From IMG/VR virus record IMGVR_UViG_3300028586_000004, positions 1-60,645 of that record: a DNA stretch of 60,645 nt; one strand, 5' to 3'. A program made the position numbers and the translations under genes. The notes below the pieces were generated by a model. That model was not told the origin of the DNA and ran no database searches. It saw only the letters and a list, made by a program, of their open reading frames with translations. Below, in pieces: positions 1 to 60,645 of the stretch; position 1 is the stretch's first letter; each line of letters opens with the position of its first letter. Source of the DNA: a virus.

Positions 1-127
1 ATCTGCGAGAGCGTGATGGTGCTGGCGGCCGACATGGTCGGCACGGTGCCGTTGGCGTTGACGACGAGACCCTGCGCGTTCAGCATGGCGACACCGCCAG
101 CCAGGCCGGGGCGGAGGCTGTTGTAGG
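1..127. repeat. Direct terminal repeat, copy 1 (identical to 60519-60645)
   Basis: Read directly: the first 127 nt equal the last 127 nt base for base. Unit length is 60518 bp. Consistent with a circular, circularly permuted or terminally redundant genome/assembly. Confidence 0.95.
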
Positions 128-5269: not shown

Positions 5270-6790
5270 TCAGGGCAGCAGCCCGTAGCGGGTCAGAACC
5301 CACCCCAGTGCTCCCGAGGAGTGACGGCGCCACACGTAGCGCATCGACACCTTGTCGGCGGTCTCCACGCGGAGCGTCGTGGTCCCCGCCTTGATCGTGA
5401 GCGTGTTCGATCCATTCACGGCCCCACTGATGACGATCTCGTAGTAGAGACCGTTGAACATGTTGGGGCTGTCTGACGGAAGCGTCAGCGTTCGAGGTGC
5501 CGCGAATGCCGTCTGGTAAGCAACGATATTGGGGTCGCCGCGAACGATGGTGTAGTCAGAATCCGGGCGACTGTTCGAAAGGCGGCCGGTGACCTGATCG
5601 CGAACAGTGACGAAGTTGCCACCTTCCGTCGAAACCGCATTGTGCAGGCCCGCAGTGAATCCAGAGGTGCTCACGTACCTACCAATGGACAGCGCACCCG
5701 AAGAGCTAGTGGCGAACATCTGTCCGCCGTTTGCTGCAGCTTCGCTGAGCTCCACCTCCATGTACCCAACGTCTACGAATCCCTGATCGACCCGCAGTGC
5801 GCTGATGAGCCCCCCCGTCACCTTCATGGCGTTTCCGCCTACCGTGAGGTTGCCAATCGTTGCATTTGACTTACCTTCGAAGTTCCACAGCGACTTGTTT
5901 GCCGCGTAGATTCCGTTCTCCAGTTTCATCGTGCCGATGTTGACCTTGCCTCCCGCCTGCAGGGTCAAGAGGTTGGCGCCCTTGTTGGCCGCGATGAACT
6001 CGATCGTGTCGATCTGGAAGTTGTACCCCCGAAGAGAGAAGACCGGTCCGATCATGTTGGCGCAGTCGGCCAGGATGCGGCCGAATCGGTTGTTCGGAAC
6101 GCCGTTCACGCCACGACTCCAGTCCATGGCTCCGACCGTCATGGCGCCGCCAAAACGAAGATCGTCGAACGTCGTGCCCCACGGGCATCCGATACCGTCA
6201 GCCATCCGGAATCCGAATGCGCTGTTGTTGAACTGCAGGTTGGTGAAGGCCGACTGGAACACCATGGTCGACAGGAGTATCGCCGCCGCATCCGTGTTCG
6301 TTGCCGGCTGATCGGTTGCGTAGTTGAACGACATGTCACGAATTGCCATGCTGTGCATGTAGGAAACGGTGTCGCTGCCGAGATTGAAAATGGCGACATT
6401 GTCGGTGTACTGCTTGATCGTGGTGACGTACGGCCCGGCGCCGACAACCGACCAGCCGGGAACGCTAGAGAATCGCAGCGGCGCGGTGATCTTGTACGTT
6501 CCGGCAGGGATGACCCCCGCTCGATGGTTGACCTGGCAGTAGGTGACGAACCGCTGCAGCGCGTCGGTGTCGTCGGCCACGCCGTCACCCACTGCGCCGA
6601 ACGAAGTGCGGGCGTTCACGAGCTCGTTCGACTGTCGTGCGTACGCCGAGTCCGACCACCTCTTGGCGTCCGACGCGGGGTTGGTGACGTCGGCCTGCTC
6701 GATGCCAGACTCGATCTTCTCGAGCGCGACCGCGGTGACCGGGGTCCCGCCAGCGACGCCAGCCTTCCACGGGGGATTCCTGCTGTACAT
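5270..6790 (-). CDS. pectate-lyase-fold (Pectate_lyase_3-like) tailspike/depolymerase-like protein (506 aa)
   Basis: Carries the signature FGAVGDGVADDTDALQRFV. The N-terminus GTPVTAVALEKIESGIEQ is a fibre-type motif. Confidence 0.65.
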   Translation of the reverse strand: MYSRNPPWKAGVAGGTPVTAVALEKIESGIEQADVTNPASDAKRWSDSAYARQSNELVNARTSFGAVGDGVADDTDALQRFVTYCQVNHRAGVIPAGTYKITAPLRFSSVPGWSVVGAGPYVTTIKQYTDNVAIFNLGSDTVSYMHSMAIRDMSFNYATDQPATNTDAAAILLSTMVFQSAFTNLQFNNSAFGFRMADGIGCPWGTTFDDLRFGGAMTVGAMDWSRGVNGVPNNRFGRILADCANMIGPVFSLRGYNFQIDTIEFIAANKGANLLTLQAGGKVNIGTMKLENGIYAANKSLWNFEGKSNATIGNLTVGGNAMKVTGGLISALRVDQGFVDVGYMEVELSEAAANGGQMFATSSSGALSIGRYVSTSGFTAGLHNAVSTEGGNFVTVRDQVTGRLSNSRPDSDYTIVRGDPNIVAYQTAFAAPRTLTLPSDSPNMFNGLYYEIVISGAVNGSNTLTIKAGTTTLRVETADKVSMRYVWRRHSSGALGWVLTRYGLLP

Positions 6791-14606: not shown

Positions 14607-14942
14607 CTACGCGCGCTGCTCGTCGCGGCCGATGATGATGCTGGCGAGGTAGCTCACGGCGAGCCAGCCCCAGAACAGCCACCACGACCAGTGCAGCCCG
14701 GACAGCAGGCCCCACGCGAGACAGACTGCCATGATCCACGGCGTCGCGCACCACTGGCAGCGCGCGAGCTTCGACCAGGAGCCGTCCTTCGTCAGCGCGC
14801 TCCAGCGATCGCGCGCCCAGGCGGAGGGGGGGAAGTCGTCGTAGGTGATGACGCGAGACAGGCGGCCGACACCGAGCGCGGCGACGAGCACTGCGGCGAG
14901 GGCGACCAGCGGGTGCTGCTCGAGGAGGTTCAGGAGGTTCAT
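14607..14942 (-). CDS. membrane protein, DUF1360-like (111 aa)
   Basis: Start set to ATG 14942 (ATGA overlap with the terL stop). Has hydrophobic segments and a CQWCATPW motif. Confidence 0.55.
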   Translation of the reverse strand: MNLLNLLEQHPLVALAAVLVAALGVGRLSRVITYDDFPPSAWARDRWSALTKDGSWSKLARCQWCATPWIMAVCLAWGLLSGLHWSWWLFWGWLAVSYLASIIIGRDEQRA

Positions 14943-16480
14943 CGTCGTGCCCACATTCCATTCGTCGGGGTAGGTGCCTTGAGCGGCCCGAGTCTACTCC
15001 AGACCGACGCGCGCCCCGTAGGCCCCGTCGCCATCCGCCCCTTCGGCGCCGCGAGGCTCGCCTCCTCGCTCGTGCCGGCCAGCTCGGTGATGCCCCACAC
15101 GAGCGCATCCACGCGGTTCGGCGATGCACCCTCACCCGGCACCCACGTCAGCTGCTCGTTCTCCAGCTTGTCCAGGCCCGCGTACCGCTTGTGGATCACG
15201 CGTCCCTGCTCGTAGAAGCCGACCGTCGGTTCCGCGCGGATCTGCTTGCCGCGGGAGGCGAACGTCTCGATGAGCCGGACACCCTCGCCCATCTTCTTGC
15301 CGTGCTCGTCGAGCGTCGTGTCGAGCACCTGGCGGACCATGTCGCCGCCGAAGTTCTTCTCGAAGACAATCGCATCCGCGACCCACTTCGCGCGCGCCTT
15401 GAACGCGGCGGTCGCCCACTCGTTCGGCGACATCTTCGCGGTGAGGTCCTCCAGCACCCAGAACACGTCGCCCTTCCGGCCGACCACGATGATGCCGGTC
15501 TCGTCCGAGCGCGCGTTCTTCGTGCCGGCCGGGTCGACCGCGACCACGATGCGGTCCAGGTCCAGGGGCATGTAGTCCTGGTGGATCATCGTCGGATCCC
15601 ACATCGCGCCCTCAACGTCTTCGAGCAGCTCGCCGTGCAGCTCCTGCAGGCCGAGGCGCGTGCCCTCGTACCGCTTGAGCACGGTGCGCGCGAACGACGG
15701 CGCCAGGTTCTCCAGGTTCTCGTACGTCGACGCCCGGACGGCGACCGTGTCCTTCTCCTTGATGAGCTCGCGCATCCACTCGTTCGTCTTCGGCGTGGTG
15801 GTGAGCGCGATCTTCGGGTCGTTGCCCAGTCGCATCCCGAGCAGGAGGTTCGACCAGACGTCGTCGATGGCGGGGTAGTGAGCAGGCTCGTCGCACCAGC
15901 CGGCGCCGTGCTGTGGGCCACGCAAGCGGTCGGGCTCCTCGGCCGAGTAGGTCTGCGCGATGGCCCCGTTCTCGAACGTGACGCGGTGCTTCGACGGCTC
16001 CCACTGGATCTTCTCGCCCGCGTTCATACACACCGACTGCAGGCCCGACTCGCCCTCGATCAGCGTGTCGCGGACGTCGCCGGTGGTGCGAGCGACCAGC
16101 GCCATGCGGGGGGTCTTCTTCGACATGGTCCGCGCCCACTCGGCGCCCGAGCGCGTCTTCCCTGACCCACGGCCCCCGCGGAGCATCCACACGAACCAGT
16201 CGCCCCGCGGCGGCGGCCACTGGTCGGCGCGCGCGTGGGCGTACATGTAGCCCTCGTGCGGCCGGCCGTTGCAGGCGCGGCCCGGCACGCGCGTGTCCCC
16301 CGGACCAGGGAGCGTGCAGTACCAGGCGCGGCGCACGTTCTTCCGCCGCTCCTCCAGTGCTTCGAGCGCGGCGGCCCGGGCCTTCGGCGACCAGTCCTTC
16401 GTCTGCTCGACTAGGTAGCTAGCCTCGGCCTCGCTGATGCTCACGCAGCTCCCCGATCTCCCATGGTCCGTAGGCGGCAC
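14939..16480 (-). CDS. terL: terminase large subunit (513 aa)
   Basis: Walker A GGRGSGKT, followed by the nuclease half. An alternative GTG start at 16444 would shorten the overlap with 16419..16772. Confidence 0.85.
   Translation of the reverse strand: MPPTDHGRSGSCVSISEAEASYLVEQTKDWSPKARAAALEALEERRKNVRRAWYCTLPGPGDTRVPGRACNGRPHEGYMYAHARADQWPPPRGDWFVWMLRGGRGSGKTRSGAEWARTMSKKTPRMALVARTTGDVRDTLIEGESGLQSVCMNAGEKIQWEPSKHRVTFENGAIAQTYSAEEPDRLRGPQHGAGWCDEPAHYPAIDDVWSNLLLGMRLGNDPKIALTTTPKTNEWMRELIKEKDTVAVRASTYENLENLAPSFARTVLKRYEGTRLGLQELHGELLEDVEGAMWDPTMIHQDYMPLDLDRIVVAVDPAGTKNARSDETGIIVVGRKGDVFWVLEDLTAKMSPNEWATAAFKARAKWVADAIVFEKNFGGDMVRQVLDTTLDEHGKKMGEGVRLIETFASRGKQIRAEPTVGFYEQGRVIHKRYAGLDKLENEQLTWVPGEGASPNRVDALVWGITELAGTSEEASLAAPKGRMATGPTGRASVWSRLGPLKAPTPTNGMWARR
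16409..16424. repeat. CTAG palindrome copy (GACTAGGTAGCTAGCC, 14/16)
   Basis: Contains the TAG stop (16419-16421, minus strand) of the RHH gene. Lies inside the 5' end of terL. Confidence 0.7.
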
Positions 16481-22153: not shown

Positions 22154-22477
22154 TTACTCCTGGTCTTCGGTCGGGTCGGTGAGGTTGTCGTCGGGGCGGA
22201 AGTCGTCGCCCAGGTCGGCGACGTACGCGACGTTGGATGCGGCGGCGATCTGGTCCAGCCGTGCGATGGAGCCGGTGAGGAACTCGCGCCACCTGGTCGG
22301 CTCCGGACCGGACTTCCCGTGCAGGGCCCGCAGCTGGCGCACGAGCTCGTCGTCGCCGGGGTTCTCGTCAAGCCCGAGCACTTCGCTGACGACGTCACGG
22401 AAGCGGTCGCAGGTGTCGGAGGCGATCTTGTAGGCAGCCCTGAGGTCATAGTCTCCGGTGGGCTGGACGCCCATCAT
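22154..22477 (-). CDS. hypothetical acidic protein (107 aa)
   Basis: ORF track; lies between the two paralogs. Confidence 0.6.
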   Translation of the reverse strand: MMGVQPTGDYDLRAAYKIASDTCDRFRDVVSEVLGLDENPGDDELVRQLRALHGKSGPEPTRWREFLTGSIARLDQIAAASNVAYVADLGDDFRPDDNLTDPTEDQE

Positions 22478-22992
22478 CGGCCAGCCTCGCCGTCCTGCTC
22501 AGGGGCGCCGCCGAGGATCCCGTCCGCCACCTCGGCGGCGACGGCCTGGAGGACGGGGCCCTCGACGCCCTTGCTCAGGTAGACCGCGGTGATCCGGCCG
22601 ATCATCTCGTCGCGCGAGATCGGCCAGGTCTTCGTGTCGCCCAGGGTGATGCGGTTCGTGATGCCGTCAACGAGGTGCTGGACGAAGCTCTTGTCGAGCG
22701 GCAGCACCTGCGCGTCGCTGCCGGCGGCATGGATGATCTTGAGCAGCTGCTCGCTGATGTACCGCTCGTCGGCAGGTGAATCAAGCTCGGGCTCGACGGC
22801 CTCCATGGTGATGCTGTCGACGAAGACGTTGCCGTAGGCGAGGGCCTCGACGGAGCCGCGGAGCTGCTGCTCGCCGTAGCGGCTGAGGCCGGTGGGCGTG
22901 CGGTCGTCGGCCCAGACGTTCAGGTCGTCGGACTGCGGGTCGAACTCGAAGGTGACGCGCACGGGGCGGTCGATCGGATTGGTGTCTGACAC
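22474..22992 (-). CDS. hypothetical protein, paralog A of the DDRTPTGLxRY family (172 aa)
   Basis: Start moved from GTG 23031 to GTG 22992 (RBS AAGGCAGGA). This matches the N-terminus of paralog B and leaves the DnaA box intergenic. Confidence 0.6.
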   Translation of the reverse strand: MSDTNPIDRPVRVTFEFDPQSDDLNVWADDRTPTGLSRYGEQQLRGSVEALAYGNVFVDSITMEAVEPELDSPADERYISEQLLKIIHAAGSDAQVLPLDKSFVQHLVDGITNRITLGDTKTWPISRDEMIGRITAVYLSKGVEGPVLQAVAAEVADGILGGAPEQDGEAGR

Positions 22993-23023
22993 GGGGTAGG
23001 TTCCTGCCTTGTTGGGTGGTGAG

Positions 23024-23032
23024 TTATCCACA
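23024..23032 (+). promoter_or_regulatory. perfect DnaA box TTATCCACA
   Basis: Read directly. The 12-mer GTTATCCACAGC is shared with the box at 33597. Confidence 0.6.
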
Positions 23033-23049
23033 GCTCGGGGGCTGTATTT

Positions 23050-23088
23050 GTTATGCTACAGCAGAAAAAGCATATGCTGGAGCATAAC
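23050..23088. repeat. AT-rich 13-bp inverted repeat (12/13) with 13-nt spacer
   Basis: GTTATGCTACAGC-agaaaaagcatat-GCTGGAGCATAAC. The surrounding 80 bp are about 43% GC by hand count, in a genome that is roughly two-thirds GC. Confidence 0.8.
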
Positions 23089-23150
23089 TCGGTGTTCTGT
23101 GTGAAAACAGCTCTGATCAGGTCGAAGTAGGGGGTACCCAGATCCTCTCT

Positions 23151-23798
23151 CTATCTCTCTTCAATCTCACTTGACTTATCCACACCCCCTCGTGGCACTG
23201 TCTCTGCGGCACCCGGACGGGGCAGGAGACTACCCCAGTCGACGCCCGGCAGGTCGAGGAGCCAGCGGTCCATCGCCAGCTGTTGCCTCTCGGCCAGCAC
23301 GGACGACACCTCGGTCAGGATCTCCAGGCCCATCTCCCTCTGCTCGCCCCACCTCGGCGCCAGCGGCCCCTCCAGGGCGGCCAGCCGGCGCTCGATGCGC
23401 CGCAGCTCGATGAGGCGGGCAAGCTCCGCGTCCTGCTGACGTCGATGGGCCGCCCGCGCGCCCCGTCCAGTCGCCCGATCGGCGATCAGCGCGTCGAACC
23501 GAGCGCGCATCGCGGCCAGATCGGCGCGAGGAGCCACCTGGGGCTGCGAACGGGCGCTCTCGGCTCCGTAGACCAGCGGGATCCCGCCAGCGGCCCGCAC
23601 GGCGGCCTCCAGCACCCAGCTCGGGAGCAGCCCGTCGTCCACCGGGACGTACGAGACCACCGTCTGCGGCGTCGACAGGCGCTCGTCGCCCTTCATGTAC
23701 GTCCGATGCGTCACCCGCCACGCCAGCTGCCCGTCCTCGAGCTGCACCAGCTCCTTCATGGAGTCGGTGACCATCTGGATCACGTAGTCGTCGGCCAT
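23151..23798 (-). CDS. hypothetical protein (215 aa)
   Basis: ORF track; plausible composition. The second DnaA box lies in its last codons. Confidence 0.65.
   Translation of the reverse strand: MADDYVIQMVTDSMKELVQLEDGQLAWRVTHRTYMKGDERLSTPQTVVSYVPVDDGLLPSWVLEAAVRAAGGIPLVYGAESARSQPQVAPRADLAAMRARFDALIADRATGRGARAAHRRQQDAELARLIELRRIERRLAALEGPLAPRWGEQREMGLEILTEVSSVLAERQQLAMDRWLLDLPGVDWGSLLPRPGAAETVPRGGVDKSSEIEER
23176..23184 (+). promoter_or_regulatory. perfect DnaA box TTATCCACA
   Basis: Read directly. Same orientation as the box at 23024, 152 bp away. Confidence 0.55.
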
Positions 23799-24228: not shown

Positions 24229-24557
24229 CGCCCGATCTCCTGCACTCCGTCGTCGGTCGACTGCACGTCGACACCCTGACGCTCCTCGAACGCCCGGATC
24301 CACGCGTCGTACCACGTCGCGTTCTCGTCCGTGCGTTCGATCGGGCTGTCGAACATCGGATGCAGCAGCTGGGCTTCCGTGCTGACTCCGTTCGAGTCCA
24401 CGCGAGCGCGCTTGCGCAGCCGGGGCCGGCACATGCCGGTGTGCTGCACGAGCATCTCGCCTGCCCATCGCTCCATCACGTCGGCGTCGGGGAACAGGTC
24501 GGCCGCGGTCCACCCGCGCTCGGCCATGTAGTCCACCTTCATCTGGTCGTCGTCCAT
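24225..24557 (-). CDS. hypothetical protein, first gene of the leftward arm (110 aa)
   Basis: Start ATG 24557 with RBS GAGAGGAG. Confidence 0.6.
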   Translation of the reverse strand: MDDDQMKVDYMAERGWTAADLFPDADVMERWAGEMLVQHTGMCRPRLRKRARVDSNGVSTEAQLLHPMFDSPIERTDENATWYDAWIRAFEERQGVDVQSTDDGVQEIGR

Positions 24558-24631
24558 CGGACGGCTCCTCTCGTTGTTATGCCCTAGCATACATTATGGC
24601 TGACACAATAGGTACCCCCCGAGAGGGCACA

Positions 24632-24637
24632 TCTCTA
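24632..24637 (-). promoter_or_regulatory. -10-like TAGAGA preceded by GGGG (candidate leftward promoter)
   Basis: The minus strand reads CCGGGGTAGAGAT, the same GGGGTAGAG core as at 31420 and 34349. No good -35 element. Confidence 0.3.
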
Positions 24638-24772
24638 CCCCGGTATCGCCCCACACCGGACCCTAGTTCTGTCAGCCCATATGGTGCCCCACACCGCACT
24701 CGGACAGGGCGACGGTGACCGAGCTCACAGCGCGTGAGCTATCCCTTTCCCCTGGGGTGCGGGGGTCCCTCA

Positions 24773-24840
24773 CGTCACCGCGACCCCCCGTCACCGGGCA
24801 GCGGCATCGGCGACATCACCGCATCGTCACGCCCGTCACC
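24773..24840 (+). repeat. cluster of five CGTCACC-like heptamers
   Basis: CGTCACC at 24773, 24789 and 24834; CATCACC at 24814; CGTCACG at 24825. Located in the divergent control region. Confidence 0.5.
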
Positions 24841-24995
24841 CCCCTGGGCCCACCGCAAGGTCCTTCCTGCACGTCAGGCAGGCGCACGCGCGCGCGGTTG
24901 GGGCACGCGGGCGCGCACGCGGGTGCCTGCGCGGGGGTGGCAGGGCTCGACCTGGTCTGCCGGGAAACCGCGACACGCCCGGGATGCAGCCCCGC

Positions 24996-25025
24996 TTGAC
25001 GGGGTAGACGCCTACCCCGTAGCTT
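24996..25025 (+). promoter_or_regulatory. candidate rightward promoter TTGACG-18 nt-TAGCTT
   Basis: Read directly. The whole spacer is the inverted repeat GGGGTAGACGCCTACCCC. Confidence 0.5.
25001..25018. repeat. inverted repeat GGGGTAG-acgc-CTACCCC (operator-like)
   Basis: 7-bp arms. Near-identical to the repeat at 41750-41766. Confidence 0.8.
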
Positions 25026-25418
25026 CATCACATGCCAGCCGGGAAAGCCCGGCAGGCAGGCCCCCCACGGAGGGCCGCACGCAGCTTCACAACTCCACAC
25101 GGACACCCACTCCACGGCAGCACCTAGCTCGGCTGCACGGGAGCACACCTAGGCGCAGGCCGCACAGCCGGAAGGCAGCACCCGCCACGCTAGGCACCCC
25201 CACCGTGGGGACCCACCCGGCCTCCGTTCACACAAGGGAACGAACGGAGGTCGGCTAGGGCTCACGGCCCACCAGAGGGGACGCGCACGGCAAGACAGCT
25301 ACCCGCCTCTCCTCTCCCCCTCATCGCGGGGAGCTGCACGGCACGGTCGGTGTCGCGCTGCACCGTCTCTCTCCCCCTCCTCATCACGACTCCCGCGACG
25401 CTCCACGAAGGGCTCATC

Positions 25419-25544
25419 ATGTTCCGTTTCCTCATCACCACGCTCCGCCGTCTGACGTACTCCACCGCACCGGTCCCGCTGGGGCTGGCTGCTCCGGCTG
25501 TCACCGCGACGCCGGTTCCGCTGCCTGCTCCTCGCGGGCTGTAG
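25419..25544 (+). CDS. possible small protein MFRFLITTLRRL.. (41 aa)
   Basis: ATG has the leader GAAGGGCTCATC, similar to neighbouring genes. Pro/Ala-rich and uncertain. Confidence 0.35.
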   Translation: MFRFLITTLRRLTYSTAPVPLGLAAPAVTATPVPLPAPRGL

Positions 25545-25550
25545 CTTCAC

Positions 25551-25574
25551 CGCACGACCGCACGACCGCACGAC
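25551..25574 (+). repeat. tandem repeat (CGCACGAC)x3
   Basis: Read directly. The same octamer recurs at 34181, 34191, 34249 and 46883. Confidence 0.85.
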
Positions 25575-25639
25575 CTGCATCACCTCCACTCACTCAGCAC
25601 GTCACCACCGCCGATGCGTCGGCAGATCGGATAGGCACC

Positions 25640-33563: not shown

Positions 33564-33593
33564 GACGCCCTCCGCTTTCGAGTGGGGGGCGTC
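33564..33593 (+). terminator. 7-bp-stem hairpin after palindrome
   Basis: GACGCCC-16 nt-GGGCGTC. Confidence 0.4.
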
Positions 33594-33596
33594 GTG

Positions 33597-33618
33597 TTAT
33601 CCACAGCCCTGTCCACAA
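33597..33618 (+). promoter_or_regulatory. paired DnaA boxes TTATCCACA-gccc-TGTCCACA
   Basis: Read directly. The second box fits the actinobacterial TTGTCCACA type in 8 of 9 positions. Confidence 0.55.
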
Positions 33619-33643: not shown

Positions 33644-33901
33644 ATGATCGACATCGCCACCGCCCGCACCATGATCGAACTGTCGAGCGCGTCGTACGTG
33701 CTCGAGTCGGATCGGATGATCGCGAAGGCTCAAGCTCATGCGACGATCGCGCTGGCGGAGGAGCAGCGCACCGCGAACCTCATCGCCTACCTCGCGATGA
33801 GCTCCGCGGCGGACCTCGACGTCAATCTCATGCGCGACGAGATCGAGCACCGGCTGCAGACTCCGTCCGCGCCAACCACTACATCTAGGGCTTCGGGCTG
33901 A
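33644..33901 (+). CDS. hypothetical protein (85 aa)
   Basis: ATG 33644 with RBS ACGGAGA preferred over the tracked GTG 33620. Confidence 0.6.
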   Translation: MIDIATARTMIELSSASYVLESDRMIAKAQAHATIALAEEQRTANLIAYLAMSSAADLDVNLMRDEIEHRLQTPSAPTTTSRASG

Positions 33902-41244: not shown

Positions 41245-41756
41245 TGCCCGGCTCTCTCCCGCTTCCCGAGTTCGGCACGCTGGCATCATGGATCGGCCTC
41301 GCGGTCACCATGCTGGGCGGCGGCAGCATCGGCACCTACCTGTTCACGAAGCGGAACCAGGACAAGAAGACCGACGCGGACGTCTTCGCGGCCGTCAGCA
41401 CCGGCAGCGCCGAGCTCAAGAAGGCGGTCAGCGACGGGCAGGTGGCCGAGACCGACCGGCTCGTGAAGCTTACCGAGCAGGTCATCGCGCTCAGCGACGC
41501 GCTCGGTGCGCTGCGGTCCGAGAAGGACGCGCAGATCGAAGACCTGAACGAGCAGATCAGCACGCTGCGTCGGCAGAACTCCGAGAAGGACACGCTCGTC
41601 GTCGAGAGCCGCCGGGACCTGGACGAGTTCAAGGTGGCGGTCGGCCAGCTGCTCTCTGAGCTCCGCGCGCTCTGGCCGGCGCCGCCGTTCCCCGCGCTCA
41701 CGACCGCGAACGAGCACCTGCTGGAGATCCTCAACCGAGGCCAGCCAAAGGGGTAG
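41244..41756 (+). CDS. N-terminal transmembrane coiled-coil protein, second lysis-type membrane protein (170 aa)
   Basis: ATG 41244 (TGATG coupling). One N-terminal transmembrane helix and a long heptad-like region. Confidence 0.45.
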   Translation: MPGSLPLPEFGTLASWIGLAVTMLGGGSIGTYLFTKRNQDKKTDADVFAAVSTGSAELKKAVSDGQVAETDRLVKLTEQVIALSDALGALRSEKDAQIEDLNEQISTLRRQNSEKDTLVVESRRDLDEFKVAVGQLLSELRALWPAPPFPALTTANEHLLEILNRGQPKG

Positions 41757-41766
41757 CGCCTACCCC
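41750..41766. repeat. inverted repeat GGGGTAG-cgc-CTACCCC
   Basis: Contains the TAG stop 41754-41756. Near-identical to 25001-25018. Confidence 0.8.
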
Positions 41767-41776
41767 GGCTCGCGCC

Positions 41777-41806
41777 TTGCCCACCGACCACTGCCCCGCG
41801 TAGAAT
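41777..41806 (+). promoter_or_regulatory. candidate ssb promoter TTGCCC-18 nt-TAGAAT
   Basis: Read directly. The -10 lies in the loop of the 9-bp inverted repeat CTGCCCCGC..GCGGGGCAG (41791-41816). Confidence 0.5.
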
Positions 41807-41852: not shown

Positions 41853-42482
41853 ATGGCGGGCGAGACCATTATCACGATCGTCGGAAATCTGACCGCCGAC
41901 CCCGAGCTGCGCTACACGCAGAACGGCGCGGCCGTGGCGAACTTCACGATCGCGTCCACGCCGCGCACGTTCGACAAGGCGAGCAACGACTGGAAGGACG
42001 GGGACGCGCTGTTCATGCGCTGCTCCGCCTGGCGCGACACCGGCGAGCACGCCGCATCGTCGCTGACGAAGGGGTCGCGCGTCATCGCGACGGGCCGCCT
42101 CCAGCAGCGCAGCTACGAGAAGGACGGCGAGAAGCGCACCGTCATCGAGCTCGAGGTTGACGAGATCGGCCCGTCACTCAAGTACGCCGTCGCTCAGGTG
42201 ACGCGCGCGTCTTCGTCGGCCACCCAGCAGCGCAACCAGGGGCAGCAGAACGGCTACGGCCAGCAGCAGCCCCAGCAGGGCGGGTACCCCCCGCAGCAGC
42301 CGCAGCAGGGCCAGCAGCCCGGCGGCTGGTACGACGGGCCCCCGCAGCAGCCGTCCGGCGTTCAGCAGCCCCAGCAGGGCCAGCCCCAGGGCGGCCAGTG
42401 GGGCGGCCAGCAGGCGCCGCAGCAGGGCCAGCCGCAGCAGCAGCCGCAGCCCGGCGGCTTCAACGCCGAGACGCCGTTCTGA
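41853..42482 (+). CDS. ssb: single-stranded DNA-binding protein (209 aa)
   Basis: The OB-fold N-terminus [25 protein letters not shown], a Gln/Pro/Gly-rich tail and a terminal ETPF tip. Confidence 0.9.
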
Positions 42483-43549: not shown

Positions 43550-44248
43550 GTGCGCTTCTCAGCCGACATCGAAGCGGCCGTGCGTGCAGCCCTCGCCGAG
43601 AACGCCGATGCGTGCATCACGTTCCCGGAAGAGGCGTACGCCGGCCGCAAGGTGCCGGTCATCAGTCGCCCCCACGGTGCGGTGATGATCCACCGCTACC
43701 TCTACCGCGAGCTCATCGGCCCCTTGCCGACGAACCGCTTCCTCCTCGGGCCCACGTGCGGCACCGAAGGGTGCGTCAGCCCCTACCACCGGACCGTGTC
43801 GAAGCGCGCCAACGACCCCGACTTCTGCCGGAACGGCCATCGATACACGCCGGAGAACACGCTCAAGACGAAGCACGACCGGTGCCGCACGTGTCGAGAT
43901 CAGCGCAACCAGCGCCGCGATCGGTACGGGGAGCCGACCCAGGCGCAGATCAATAAGGCGAAGACCCACTGTCCCGAGGATCACGAGTACACCCCGGAGA
44001 ATACGTACATAACGAACAAGGGGCAACGTAAGTGCAAGACGTGTACACTCAAACGTGTAGCGACCCGACGCAACAGGATGAAGCAACTCATCCAGGAAGC
44101 AGTACCCGATGACCAACCCGACACTCCTCGCGAAGCGAGGCACGTTCACGCTCAAGCAGGAGCAGCGGATGCTGCGCCCCGTGAACGGCAACACGGTGCA
44201 GATCAAGCAGGGGAACGCCTACATCCCCGCGGTGCAGGTGCGCGCTGA
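43550..44248 (+). CDS. HNH endonuclease-like protein (232 aa)
   Basis: GTG 43550. Repeated C..GH.YTPENT...C.TC zinc-finger units. GC visibly lower across 43940-44100. The frame stays open 140 nt into the next gene. Confidence 0.55.
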   Translation: MRFSADIEAAVRAALAENADACITFPEEAYAGRKVPVISRPHGAVMIHRYLYRELIGPLPTNRFLLGPTCGTEGCVSPYHRTVSKRANDPDFCRNGHRYTPENTLKTKHDRCRTCRDQRNQRRDRYGEPTQAQINKAKTHCPEDHEYTPENTYITNKGQRKCKTCTLKRVATRRNRMKQLIQEAVPDDQPDTPREARHVHAQAGAADAAPRERQHGADQAGERLHPRGAGAR

Positions 44249-44831
44249 GCTCGGCCGCACATTCGGCATGGGCAACTGGGAAGCCGACACCACCGACCTC
44301 GAGCTCCTGTTCGAGGTCGCCACGAAGACGAAGTCCTCCGGCGCCGACGCCTGGCTCGTCGGCTACCGCGCGCGCGTCGAGCTCCGCGTTCGCAACTACG
44401 AGGGCGAGCTCGTCTACTGCGGCTCCGCCTGGCACGTCGACTCCTCCACCCAGCCCCAGCGCGGCGACTGCCATGCGAAGGCGATCACGAGCGCCGAGTC
44501 CTTCGCTCTCCGCCGCGCCGCGCTGCCACTCGGCGACATCTTCGGCCTGCACCTCTACGCCAAGGGCAACATCACCGGCGTCATCGGCAACTCCGAGTTC
44601 ATCGTCGACCACCTCATCCCCCAGGGCCTCGCCGACGGCAGCCTCGTCAAGGACCCGAACACCGGCTTCATCTACCCGAAGCCGGAGACCGCGAGCGAGG
44701 AGATCAACGACAAGGACATCGACTACGGCGACGGCACCGGCGAGGCCGGTGTCTCCGATGAGACCGACGAAGAGCCCGACGTCGATGCCGTGAACGGCGC
44801 CTTCGCCCACGACCGGGACCCGCAGCGATGA
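44109..44831 (+). CDS. Rad52/Sak-like single-strand annealing protein (240 aa)
   Basis: HAKAITSAESFALRRAALPLGDIFGLHLY matches the Rad52-family signature, with an acidic C-terminal tail. Confidence 0.65.
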   Translation: MTNPTLLAKRGTFTLKQEQRMLRPVNGNTVQIKQGNAYIPAVQVRAELGRTFGMGNWEADTTDLELLFEVATKTKSSGADAWLVGYRARVELRVRNYEGELVYCGSAWHVDSSTQPQRGDCHAKAITSAESFALRRAALPLGDIFGLHLYAKGNITGVIGNSEFIVDHLIPQGLADGSLVKDPNTGFIYPKPETASEEINDKDIDYGDGTGEAGVSDETDEEPDVDAVNGAFAHDRDPQR

Positions 44832-45817
44832 GCCTCGGCACGCTGCGCTACGTCGCGCCGCCCGTCCTGCCTGTCGACGTCGAAGGCGAGGAGTGGCCCG
44901 ACCCGCTCGTCGAGCACGGTCGCGCCGTTGGTGACGCCATCATCGGGCTGCTCATCCAGCACGAGAACGACAAGCCGCGCTCCAAGCAGAAGGCACTCGG
45001 CATGTCGTCCCTCGGCGGCTGCCGCGAGTTCATCCGCGCGACCATCGCGGGCGACCCTCGGCAGGACAGCGAGAAGTGGAAGCTGGAGGCCATGGTCGGC
45101 ACCGCCGTCGGCGACTACTTCGAGCAGGCGCTCGAGGCCGGCGACGAGGGTGTGACCGCACAGGCGTTCATCATGGTCGAGTTCAAGTCGGGCCTCCGTG
45201 CCGGTGGATCCGTTGACCTCCTCACGAAGACCAGCGTCATCGACCTCAAGACGCGCGACGGCCTCGGCGACGTGCGCCGTGAGGGTCCGCCGTTCAAGAA
45301 CAAGGCGCAGATCTTCGGCTACCTGCAGGGCGCCATCCAGGAGGGGAAGCTCCCCGCGGACGGCGTCGGCCACCTCGTCTACATCGACCGCTCGGGCAAG
45401 GACAAGACCGTCTACGTCTGGTCACTGCAGGCCGGCACGCCCGAGTACGAGGCCATCGAGCAGGAGCTGATGAACCGGCTCCACGATGTCGCGATGGCGA
45501 TCACGACCGGCAGCTCGCAGGGCTACCTGCGAGACGAGCCGATGCAGTGGTGCAAGCTCGTCGAGTGCCCCTTCCGGGACGCGTGCTGGGCGGGCTACGA
45601 GCCGGAGACCGCGATCACGCACCCGAAGATCATCGAGTCGGTGAAGAAGTACCAGATCGCGCGCGCCGACGCGAAGGACGCCGAGAGCCGGAAGGCCCAC
45701 GCGCGCCAGGAGCTGATCGGCTCCGAGGGCCTCACCCCTGACGGAACGCAGGTCCGATGGGCCACGCGCGCCAACGACAAGGGCACGGTCACGAGCATGC
45801 TGACCGTTCGACCCTGA
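44828..45817 (+). CDS. Cas4/RecB-like PD-(D/E)xK exonuclease (329 aa)
   Basis: An N-terminal Cys (GGCREF), the nuclease motifs VDLL..VIDLKT and QIFGYL, and the C-terminal cluster WCKLVECPFRDAC. Confidence 0.65.
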   Translation: MSLGTLRYVAPPVLPVDVEGEEWPDPLVEHGRAVGDAIIGLLIQHENDKPRSKQKALGMSSLGGCREFIRATIAGDPRQDSEKWKLEAMVGTAVGDYFEQALEAGDEGVTAQAFIMVEFKSGLRAGGSVDLLTKTSVIDLKTRDGLGDVRREGPPFKNKAQIFGYLQGAIQEGKLPADGVGHLVYIDRSGKDKTVYVWSLQAGTPEYEAIEQELMNRLHDVAMAITTGSSQGYLRDEPMQWCKLVECPFRDACWAGYEPETAITHPKIIESVKKYQIARADAKDAESRKAHARQELIGSEGLTPDGTQVRWATRANDKGTVTSMLTVRP

Positions 45818-60124: not shown

Positions 60125-60645
60125 CTAGCTCCTAGGGGCGTTGATGTCGTAGCAGCCGGGACGGCCCTGGATGGGGGTGAGGACGGACGCGAGCTCAGCG
60201 CGCGCCGAGGCGGCGACGGAGATGTCCCTGGCCTGGGCGGACGCCACGCGTGCTGCCTGTGAAGCGGCGGCGGATGCGGCCGACTCTCGGGCGGATGCAG
60301 CGGACGCAGCGGCGGCAGCCACGGCGTCGTTACCGGAGCCGAGGTCGAGGGTCTCCCAGACGGCGTCTCCCGCCGCGGTCGACCTCTTGCGCAGGAACTG
60401 GCCCGCCGAGCCGCCAGAGGGCAGCTGGAGGCTGCTGGCGGGGGCGCCGATGAGCACGCGGGCCGCCTCCGCGGTAGTCGCCTTGGCGAGCTGGCGGCCG
60501 AAGGGGGTGGCGTCGGAGATCTGCGAGAGCGTGATGGTGCTGGCGGCCGACATGGTCGGCACGGTGCCGTTGGCGTTGACGACGAGACCCTGCGCGTTCA
60601 GCATGGCGACACCGCCAGCCAGGCCGGGGCGGAGGCTGTTGTAGG
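60125..60645 (-). CDS. 3' part of junction-spanning fibre-like gene (open at the window edge; same gene as 1..221)
   Basis: The tracked ORF is 60125..60604, and the frame stays open to 60645. The Ala/Ser-rich C-terminal half is fibre-like. Confidence 0.7.
   Translation of the reverse strand, partial: YNSLRPGLAGGVAMLNAQGLVVNANGTVPTMSAASTITLSQISDATPFGRQLAKATTAEAARVLIGAPASSLQLPSGGSAGQFLRKRSTAAGDAVWETLDLGSGNDAVAAAAASAASARESAASAAASQAARVASAQARDISVAASARAELASVLTPIQGRPGCYDINAPRS
60519..60645. repeat. Direct terminal repeat, copy 2
   Basis: Identical to 1-127. Confidence 0.95.

Follow-up and report, generated by a model that had tools for sequence, protein, structure and literature searches.

Perfect DnaA boxes around the most AT-rich DNA of an actinophage genome: a candidate host-dependent replication start site

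How phages without replication genes of their own begin to copy their DNA is largely unexplained, above all in Actinobacteria. The question is posed by a short element at positions 22993 to 23184 of the IMG/VR viral record IMGVR_UViG_3300028586_000004, whose entire 60,645-base stretch is referred to here as the window. Two perfect copies of the DnaA-box consensus TTATCCACA lie there around the most AT-rich DNA of the genome, and an earlier interpretation made from the letters by themselves (hereafter the sequence-only reading) took the element for a candidate replication origin that uses the DnaA of the host. Are these 9-mers sites for the host initiator and, if so, what are they for? As set out below, the three TTATCCACA sites of the window are likely genuine binding sites for host DnaA, kept by selection. 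The single most likely role of the 23024/23176 pair is, more tentatively, that of a host-dependent replication start site.

The pair was described as lying in one orientation with a distance of 152 bp, and the exact matches at 23024-23032 and 23176-23184, both on the + strand, agree with this. A third perfect box at 33597-33605 (+) had been overlooked; it is followed 3 bp downstream by CTGTCCACA (33609-33617), so that the two form a 'double DnaA box'. Three exact copies of TTATCCACA compare with 0.03 expected, and none of 100 dinucleotide shuffles reached that number. The relaxed consensus TTWTNCACA retrieves the three exact boxes and nothing else, and these boxes are the only recognisable host-initiator sites in the window. 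Enrichment is confined to the perfect consensus: with up to one mismatch, TTATCCACA has four matches against 2.0 expected, and TTGTCCACA, the Streptomyces and mycobacterial DnaA-box consensus, has five against 5.7. The comparison of both box types with shuffled controls, which had been proposed as a check, is thus favourable for the former type and shows no enrichment of the latter. Other 9-mers of the window reach a similar raw enrichment with 3-4 copies; the enrichment of TTATCCACA, a 9-mer named in advance, needs no correction for multiple tests. All three exact boxes lie at or between gene boundaries. Relative to its genes, box 33597 is oriented opposite to boxes 23024 and 23176, and the double box to which it belongs has no AT-rich neighbour. 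On contig L212, whose terminase is 61 % identical to that of the window, a double box TTATCCACAggcTCCTCCACA (5629-5649, -) lies within the open reading frame (ORF) of a MuF-like protein, the only coding-region example seen.

The same two-box pair, in the same orientation and 154 bp apart, is found in metagenomic contigs L006 and L007 just upstream of the first forward gene. Compared with the window, the terminase is 62 % identical, the DNA between the boxes only ~60 %, and the flanking genes and left-arm composition differ; the boxes and the flank CTGTGGATAAC are intact. In L007 the counterpart of the 23024 box (box 2) reads CCTGTGGATAAC and lies 21 nt before the ATG of the first forward gene. 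Window and L007 also share AGATAG(G/A)GAG, CTGGTCAG, CTGTA-N10-TACAG and a hairpin next to box 2 (ACAGGC-N5-GCCTGT in L007). Searches for further relatives by pattern were less productive. At least 120 stretches of IMG/VR matched a two-box pattern, and those listed include no relative of the element and are overwhelmingly unrelated DnaA-box clusters; element-specific patterns gave only chance or unrelated matches in IMG/VR and metagenomes.

A parallel arrangement exists in cluster-EG Microbacterium phages, whose terminases are 42-45 % identical to that of the window. We examined the left ends of Hyperion, Squash, Phinky, SadLad, RubyRalph and Fizzles (L209, L262-L266), phages that have been isolated on Microbacterium foliorum and M. 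paraoxydans and can be cultured. They carry a double box with a 3-bp spacer at ~300-366, in a ~680-bp non-coding region just inside the 203-bp terminal repeat; Fizzles differs, with two near-consensus boxes at 311 and 332 and another spacing. A third box follows ~300 bp beyond the double box and 2 nt after the stop of gene 1, all boxes have the same orientation, and the low-GC dip (43-48 %) that they bracket is conserved. In Hyperion (NC_047973.1) the double box occupies 346-366 and the third box 666-674, the dip is among the lowest-GC segments, and no further perfect box occurs in 58 kb. The layout is that of the window: on one side of the low-GC dip the box or boxes point into it, and on the other the box points away. 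Box variation among these phages (TCATCCACA, ATATCCACA, TTCTCCACA and, in Phinky, TTGTCCACA) is restricted to the first three positions of the 9-mer; TCCACA, the core, is retained in every variant but one, TTATCCCCA of Fizzles. In diverged EG-like phages, BLAST similarity begins exactly at the box. The paper describing cluster EG makes no mention of DnaA or of an origin.

Enrichment, conservation in L006/L007 and recurrence in cluster EG with tolerated variants thus bear out the identification of the 9-mers as host-DnaA boxes, with binding as a prediction. Could they instead be sites for a DNA-binding protein that the phage encodes, or belong to a promoter specific to the phage, and match the DnaA consensus by coincidence? 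Apart from one extra base, the inverted-repeat arm GTTATGCTACAGC does resemble the box with its flank (GTTATCCACAGC); the genome also has several other repeated short motifs, and other 9-mers reach a similar raw enrichment, as mentioned above. We nevertheless consider this improbable: an arbitrary motif would equal a 9-mer named in advance about once in 130,000 cases; the 9-mer is identical across phages with 42-45 % terminase identity whose known hosts are two Microbacterium species, whereas sites of phage regulators normally co-vary with the phage; changes at positions 1-3, as in TTGTCCACA, and double boxes with a 3-bp spacer are DnaA-specific; and the flank CTGTGGATAAC is typical of many unrelated box clusters among the IMG/VR matches listed. 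Pairs 2-3 bp apart are the form that Escherichia coli DnaA binds in vivo (PMC11317965), tandem boxes are used in the basal unwinding systems of bacterial oriC (PMC8287927), and the injection-stop (iss) region of phage T5 has DnaA-box pairs with 3-bp spacers (bioRxiv 10.1101/866236). Less probable still is a chance occurrence without function, or a 9-bp target-site duplication around an inserted mini-element. In its favour, the two copies are direct repeats ~150 bp apart; against this stand the shuffled controls, the retention of the pair in L006/L007 and the existence of a third copy and of the EG copies. A target-site duplication or miniature inverted-repeat transposable element was rejected, given the conservation of the motif elsewhere and inner ends that do not form inverted repeats.

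Why should a phage keep such sites? The only replication or recombination genes detected in the window with Pfam, PHROGs and NCBIfam encode a single-stranded DNA-binding protein (SSB), a Rad52-like annealase and a RecB/Cas4-like exonuclease. These profiles revealed neither a polymerase or primase nor a helicase or initiator in the larger ORFs of both arms and the ORFs adjoining the site, a set that does not include every small ORF, in agreement with the sequence-only reading, which had recognised none. The phage must borrow the replisome of its host. Nor is a Rep or initiator gene detectable beside the element: the proteins encoded on either side, of 215 and 172 amino acids (aa), have no replication-protein match in the same three collections and no sequence match in PDB, where searches with three ORFs of the window came back empty. 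The sole match of the 215-aa protein is a weak one to a PHROG family of unknown function.

The DNA between the boxes is low in GC. An 80-bp segment of about 43 % GC had been noticed there by hand count; 23043-23122, at 41 % against 68.7 % for the genome, is the lowest-GC 80-mer of the whole window, and the site is also the lowest when windows of 60, 100, 150 or 200 nt are used. The inverted repeat described in it could be located, with GTTATGCTACAGC(A) at 23050-23063 pairing with (T)GCTGGAGCATAAC at 23075-23088 (14-nt arms, 93 % complementarity), as could the palindrome GCATATGC at 23070-23077. A basal unwinding system (BUS), as defined for bacterial origins, comprises a box with no more than 2 mismatches, ideally in tandem at a distance of up to 3 bp, a spacer of up to 16 bp, at least 3 NAN triplets on a defined strand and an AT-rich region (PMC8287927). 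Box 23024 is perfect and is followed by a spacer of 11 bp, a run of five trios and, adjoining these, the AT-rich core; the run of five with its 11-bp spacer has P ~0.008 in local shuffles and 0.006 genome-wide.

From these elements a course of events can be proposed. DnaA would bind box 23024, which points into the AT-rich core across the GC-rich spacer and the five NAN triplets of the complementary strand, the geometry of a basal unwinding system in front of the least stable DNA of the genome. It would then open the duplex at the core and recruit the helicase and replisome of the host, with box 23176, 152 bp off on the far side, as a second anchor. After the start, the SSB, annealase and exonuclease of the phage would support recombination-dependent replication.

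A number of observations weigh against this proposal. Box 23024 has no tandem partner, the only tandem pair being that at 33597; the site holds just two boxes, both single rather than double, with none at up to 2 mismatches between 23024 and 23176; and besides the boxes no direct-repeat family (iterons) is found in 22993-23184. The longest trio run in L007 or any of the EG phages is 2, short of the required 3. Cumulative GC skew has its extremes at 14986 and 57925 and gives no signal at the site; skew here tracks the direction of transcription. In EG phages the dip starts ~80 bp from the double box, outside the 16-bp limit, and Hyperion encodes its own primase/polymerase yet retains the boxes. 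On contig L211, whose terminase is 57 % identical, the first forward gene is preceded by the purine tract, CTGGTCAG and CTGTA..TACAG, and the 16 kb contain no DnaA box at all; the core function of the element is therefore independent of DnaA, and the boxes belong to part of the lineage only. Perfect boxes are missing from most relatives with 41-56 % identical terminases, with 4 copies in 981 kb. Transcription control fits both the placing of the boxes, at a gene end and 21-48 nt ahead of start codons, and the operator-like palindrome shared with the operon head. The DnaA-box pairs of phage T5 are found at a distance from its mapped origins (bioRxiv 10.1101/866236). The origin proposal is partly supported: no phage initiator was detected, the site is the most AT-rich of the genome and the geometry at box 23024 is BUS-like, set against missing iterons and a trio run that is not conserved. 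Conservation in related phages, on which the sequence-only reading had made its proposal depend, is likewise divided, with the boxes kept in L006/L007 and the EG phages and lacking in L211 and most distant relatives. No perfect box occurs in the first 50 kb of MellowYellow, the Arthrobacter phage that comes closest among isolates in its terminase, and the boxes are therefore lineage-restricted.

Several of these points suit a competing explanation, in our view only slightly less likely, in which the element has no origin function and is the promoter/operator or leader of the long leftward operon, gated by DnaA. At box 23176, in the end of the upstream gene, DnaA would be a roadblock or terminator; at box 23024, before the next gene, a repressor or modulator; and the double box at 33597 would do the same ahead of the operon with the SSB, Rad52-like and exonuclease genes. 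Box positions speak for such a gate: box 23176 falls in the last codons of the 215-aa gene, as the third EG box follows the gene 1 stop; the end of box 23024 is 31 nt from the GTG at 22992, where L007 has 21 nt between box and ATG; and the double box comes after a hairpin, 27-48 nt before the ATG at 33645. The AT-rich core contains TATGC-N4-GCATA and GCATAACAA, the only other copy of which lies 21 nt before the first leftward gene. L211 retains the element without boxes, which makes these look like a regulatory add-on, and in a Hyperion concatemer the boxes are flanked by genes 1 and 104 of a single leftward block, a window-like layout. DnaA is moreover known as a repressor and as a transcription factor at double boxes, and at the asnC terminator its complex with a box blocks RNA polymerase, according to references given in PMC11317965. 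On the other side, no SigA-like leftward promoter is detectable in the element, where the sole TTGnnn-N19-TAnnnT match faces the other way; the site at 33597 has the opposite orientation relative to its genes; what a lytic phage would gain from sensing DnaA is conjecture; and the question of where an initiator-less phage starts replication receives no answer. To our knowledge, no phage late-operon gate of the DnaA type has been described. The box itself was considered as a -10 element and rejected, as GGATAA/GATAAC lacks a conserved final T and the 33597 site is in opposite orientation.

A role in capturing DnaA seems unlikely. In one version the boxes would anchor the phage DNA, close to a genome end, to DnaA at the membrane, which has been proposed for the injection-stop region of T5; in the other they would soak up host DnaA and so shut down initiation on the host chromosome. 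T5-like phages keep their 3-bp-spaced box pairs in a non-coding terminal region that is not the origin (bioRxiv 10.1101/866236), the EG boxes lie 140-470 bp inside the 203-bp direct terminal repeat, and the ends of contigs L006, L007 and L211, all 70-340 nt upstream of the element, hint at a physical terminus close by. The window is, however, a circular assembly, and its likelier terminus, a large non-coding region, is 1.4 kb from the pair; with three or four copies in each genome the boxes would be a weak sink until copy number is high; and the T5 model is itself a hypothesis. A host-dependent start site and transcription control are, on the other hand, not mutually exclusive, and the same DnaA sites may serve transcription control too. 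In a combined version, which is unlikely, an initiator-less lytic actinophage would fire replication by host DnaA alone at a minimal two-box origin, and the boxes would double as a copy-number timer. Early on, DnaA at the gene-end and start-proximal boxes would keep transcription from reaching the terminase and structural genes; the growing number of phage genomes would titrate DnaA and lift the block, coupling late expression to replication; and the same module would operate in the culturable EG phages.

The features of the element and its surroundings are collected in Table 1.

Table 1. Coordinates of the box-flanked element, the second box site and the genes discussed in the text
Feature	Position	Strand	Description
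DnaA box 2	23024..23032	+	TTATCCACA, gene-sense reading CTGTGGATAAC; ends 31 nt upstream of GTG 22992
GC-rich spacer	23033..23043	+	11 bp, GCTCGGGGGCT; part of hairpin ACAGC-N6-GCTGT (23030-23045) overlapping 3' end of box 2
AT-rich core	23043..23122		Lowest-GC 80-mer of genome (41 %)
NAN triplets	23044..23058	-	Five consecutive, 3'-CAT AAA CAA TAC GAT-5'; strand and distance as for DnaA-trios next to box 2
Inverted repeat	23050..23088		GTTATGCTACAGCA / TGCTGGAGCATAAC; includes palindrome TATGCTGGAGCATA (23073-23086) and GCATATGC; DNA fold z = -4.7
Palindrome CTGATCAG	23113..23120		Conserved core CTGRTCAG; CTGGTCAG in L007 and L211
Purine-rich tract	23141..23170	-	Gene-sense GTGAGATTGAAGAGAGATAGAGAGAGGATC, just after box 1; AGATAG(A/G)GAG common to window, L007 and L211
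DnaA box 1	23176..23184	+	TTATCCACA; within last codons (..GVDKS..) of 215-aa ORF
172-aa gene	22474..22992	-	Directly downstream of element, GTG start at 22992; N-terminal 60 aa 82-85 % identical to L004 and L006 proteins
215-aa gene	23151..23798	-	Directly upstream of element; stop codon within purine tract
Second TATGC-N4-GCATA copy	24578..24591		Followed by GCATAACAA; 21 nt upstream of ATG 24557, first leftward gene
Double DnaA box	33597..33617	+	TTATCCACA-gcc-CTGTCCACA, 3-bp spacer; after hairpin 33564-33593; 27-48 nt before ATG 33645
SSB gene	41853-42482		Rightward block
Rad52-like annealase gene	44109-44831		Rightward block
RecB/Cas4-like exonuclease gene	44828-45817		Rightward block

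Read in the sense of the genes (minus strand), the element begins with the end of the 215-aa gene and box 1 (TGTGGATAA), followed by the purine tract GTGAGATTGAAGAGAGATAGAGAGAGGATC, GGGTACCCCC and the palindrome CTGATCAG. Then come the AT-rich core with four TATGC/GCATA half-sites, CTGTA-N10-TACAG and the GC hairpin that overlaps box 2 (CTGTGGATAAC); the 31 nt from there to the GTG include a Shine-Dalgarno-like sequence. The long inverted repeat looks like an operator. TATGC-N4-GCATA occurs exactly twice in the genome, each time followed by GCATAACAA and upstream of leftward genes, and GGTACCCCC is present at both the element and the head of the leftward operon. Judged by these repeats, TATGC-N4-GCATA is likely the operator of a regulator and, together with GCATAACAA, looks like one in use at two control points. 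The element of L007 and L211 lies in the control region that heads the forward operon; the window has four small genes, of 110, 94, 49 and 215 aa (24557-23151), between operon head and element. Motifs that are contiguous in L007 (180-520), with a GGGTACCCCC hairpin and then the box-flanked element, are split by these genes, an arrangement suggestive of an insertion within the control region or of its duplication. An RNA element was considered and rejected: the window has no Rfam match and no tRNA, and the fold between the boxes (z -0.74 in the window, +0.33 in L007) is no better than that of shuffled sequences.

The first and last 127 bases of the window (1-127 and 60519-60645) are identical, and the assembly is therefore circular, with a true length of 60,518 bp; the genome is terminally redundant or circularly permuted. 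Genes were called from GC3 and from public calls on identical metagenome contigs (L001-L003, 100 % identity), and they fall into two divergent blocks. The leftward block starts at 24557 with ~25 small genes, continues with the large terminase (14939-16480), portal, MuF-like protein and capsid, and crosses the circle junction to tail genes down to 46963. The rightward block (25640-46870) encodes an M23 peptidase and the recombination genes of Table 1. The description of the site as the only sizeable gap in a leftward early operon needs two amendments: the true gap measures 158 bp (22993-23150), with box 23176 inside the 215-aa ORF, and the label 'early' is doubtful, since the genes for terminase, portal, MuF-like protein, capsid and tail follow on the same strand. 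With 42-50 % identity, the terminase resembles those of phages that infect Arthrobacter, Curtobacterium and Microbacterium; the window is therefore an actinophage with an actinobacterial host. Close relatives at DNA level were found neither in the phage collection INPHARED nor in IMG/VR, and the neighbouring protein of the element revealed no close relatives in either. A metagenome scan with a terminase alignment gave no matches, and a scan of genome contigs for a host returned one unrelated locus of a metagenome-assembled genome and nothing that points to a host.

Between the two blocks lies a non-coding divergent region of ~1.08 kb (24558-25639), in which ACCGCACG is repeated ~3.4 times at 25549-25575. 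By analogy with the 704-nt non-coding left end of MellowYellow, the physical termini of the genome may be situated there. The region has one canonical SigA-like promoter, TTGACG-18-TAGCTT (24996-25025), which points rightward; together with TTGCCC-18-TAGAAT (41750-41806) it makes up the two clean SigA-like promoters of the + strand, and both are associated with an inverted repeat GGGGTAG-N3/4-CTACCCC. The half-site CTACCCC has 15 copies in the window against 3.2 expected, one of them directly before the GTG at 22992. Another repeated motif is the 14-bp palindrome ACTAGC(T/C)AGCTAGT (11 copies with up to 2 mismatches, 0 expected), found mostly at the ends of rightward genes (27331, 27779, 28727, 30778, 33545, 34378, 38716 and 46866 on the + block; also 1043, 16410 and 18512). 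It carries stop codons in several frames and is similar to the start-associated inverted repeats that have been reported from actinophages of clusters EG and O. The left arms of the closest relatives, L004 (2960-3451) and L006 (3659-4183, 5337-5807), have Pfam matches to the anti-defence families Tad3 and Acb2/Tad1 and, just before the terminase, to ParB_N proteins; the left-arm proteins of the window gave no matches.

DnaA boxes as such are familiar from P1 and plasmid origins. Two single boxes without iterons or a Rep gene, accompanied by a separate double box, differ as a sequence arrangement from known origin types. Origin predictions of the Ori-Finder type exist for phages (PMC11512268), and no report of DnaA boxes in actinobacteriophages was found in full-text searches of the literature. 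Conserved perfect sites for a host initiator offer a testable entry point to the start of replication in such phages, and the parallel arrangement in Hyperion, Squash and their culturable relatives permits direct genetics. Should the origin proposal be true, the window would represent an initiator-less phage replicon driven by host DnaA; should the gate be true, it would represent a new way of tying phage gene timing to the replication state of the host.

How, finally, does the element compare with known systems? With iteron origins, such as P1 oriR, F and RK2, which are flanked by DnaA boxes, it shares boxes of one orientation that bracket a core with an AT-rich patch; iteron origins differ in having iterons and an adjacent or enclosing Rep gene, neither of which is detectable at the window element. 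The spacing of the boxes is nearly the same as in a high-GC viral contig (L039, IMGVR_UViG_2858275125_000008, ~5270-5430; also L098), 152 bp in the window and 153 bp there, a comparison that supports the origin proposal. In that contig three CTGTGGATAAC boxes flank four CCCGTGAACCAnGTTCAC iterons and an AT-rich patch, and the region, apparently within an ORF, looks like a textbook iteron origin. With the BUS of bacterial oriC, box 23024 has in common the perfect box, the 11-bp GC-rich spacer, the five NAN triplets on the expected strand and the AT-richest DNA (PMC8287927). The element differs in its single box, without a further box array, in a trio run that relatives do not conserve, and in its place between two co-oriented genes of a phage genome, unlike an oriC next to dnaA/dnaN.

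DnaA as a transcription factor and roadblock in E. coli resembles the situation in the window in the double box with its 3-bp spacer and in boxes at a gene end and upstream of starts; the known cases (PMC11317965 and references in it) are chromosomal, and no promoter could be identified at the window element. The iss region of T5 (bioRxiv 10.1101/866236) likewise has consensus and near-consensus boxes in conserved non-coding DNA of a lytic phage, with inverted repeats associated with the boxes and with pairs 3 bp apart, as at 33597 and in cluster EG. T5, however, has 7-8 boxes in a large terminal repeat, whereas the circular window assembly has 3-4 at two internal intergenic sites, with one 3-bp-spaced pair, at 33597, and single boxes at 23024 and 23176. 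The left-end region of the EG phages differs from the window in its spacing (~300 bp versus 152 bp), the double box on one side, the adjoining 203-bp terminal repeat and the encoded primase/polymerase. Like the window, it presents box or boxes, low-GC dip and box in one orientation (TGTGGATAA in the local gene sense), placed, in the concatemer, between co-oriented sets of genes.

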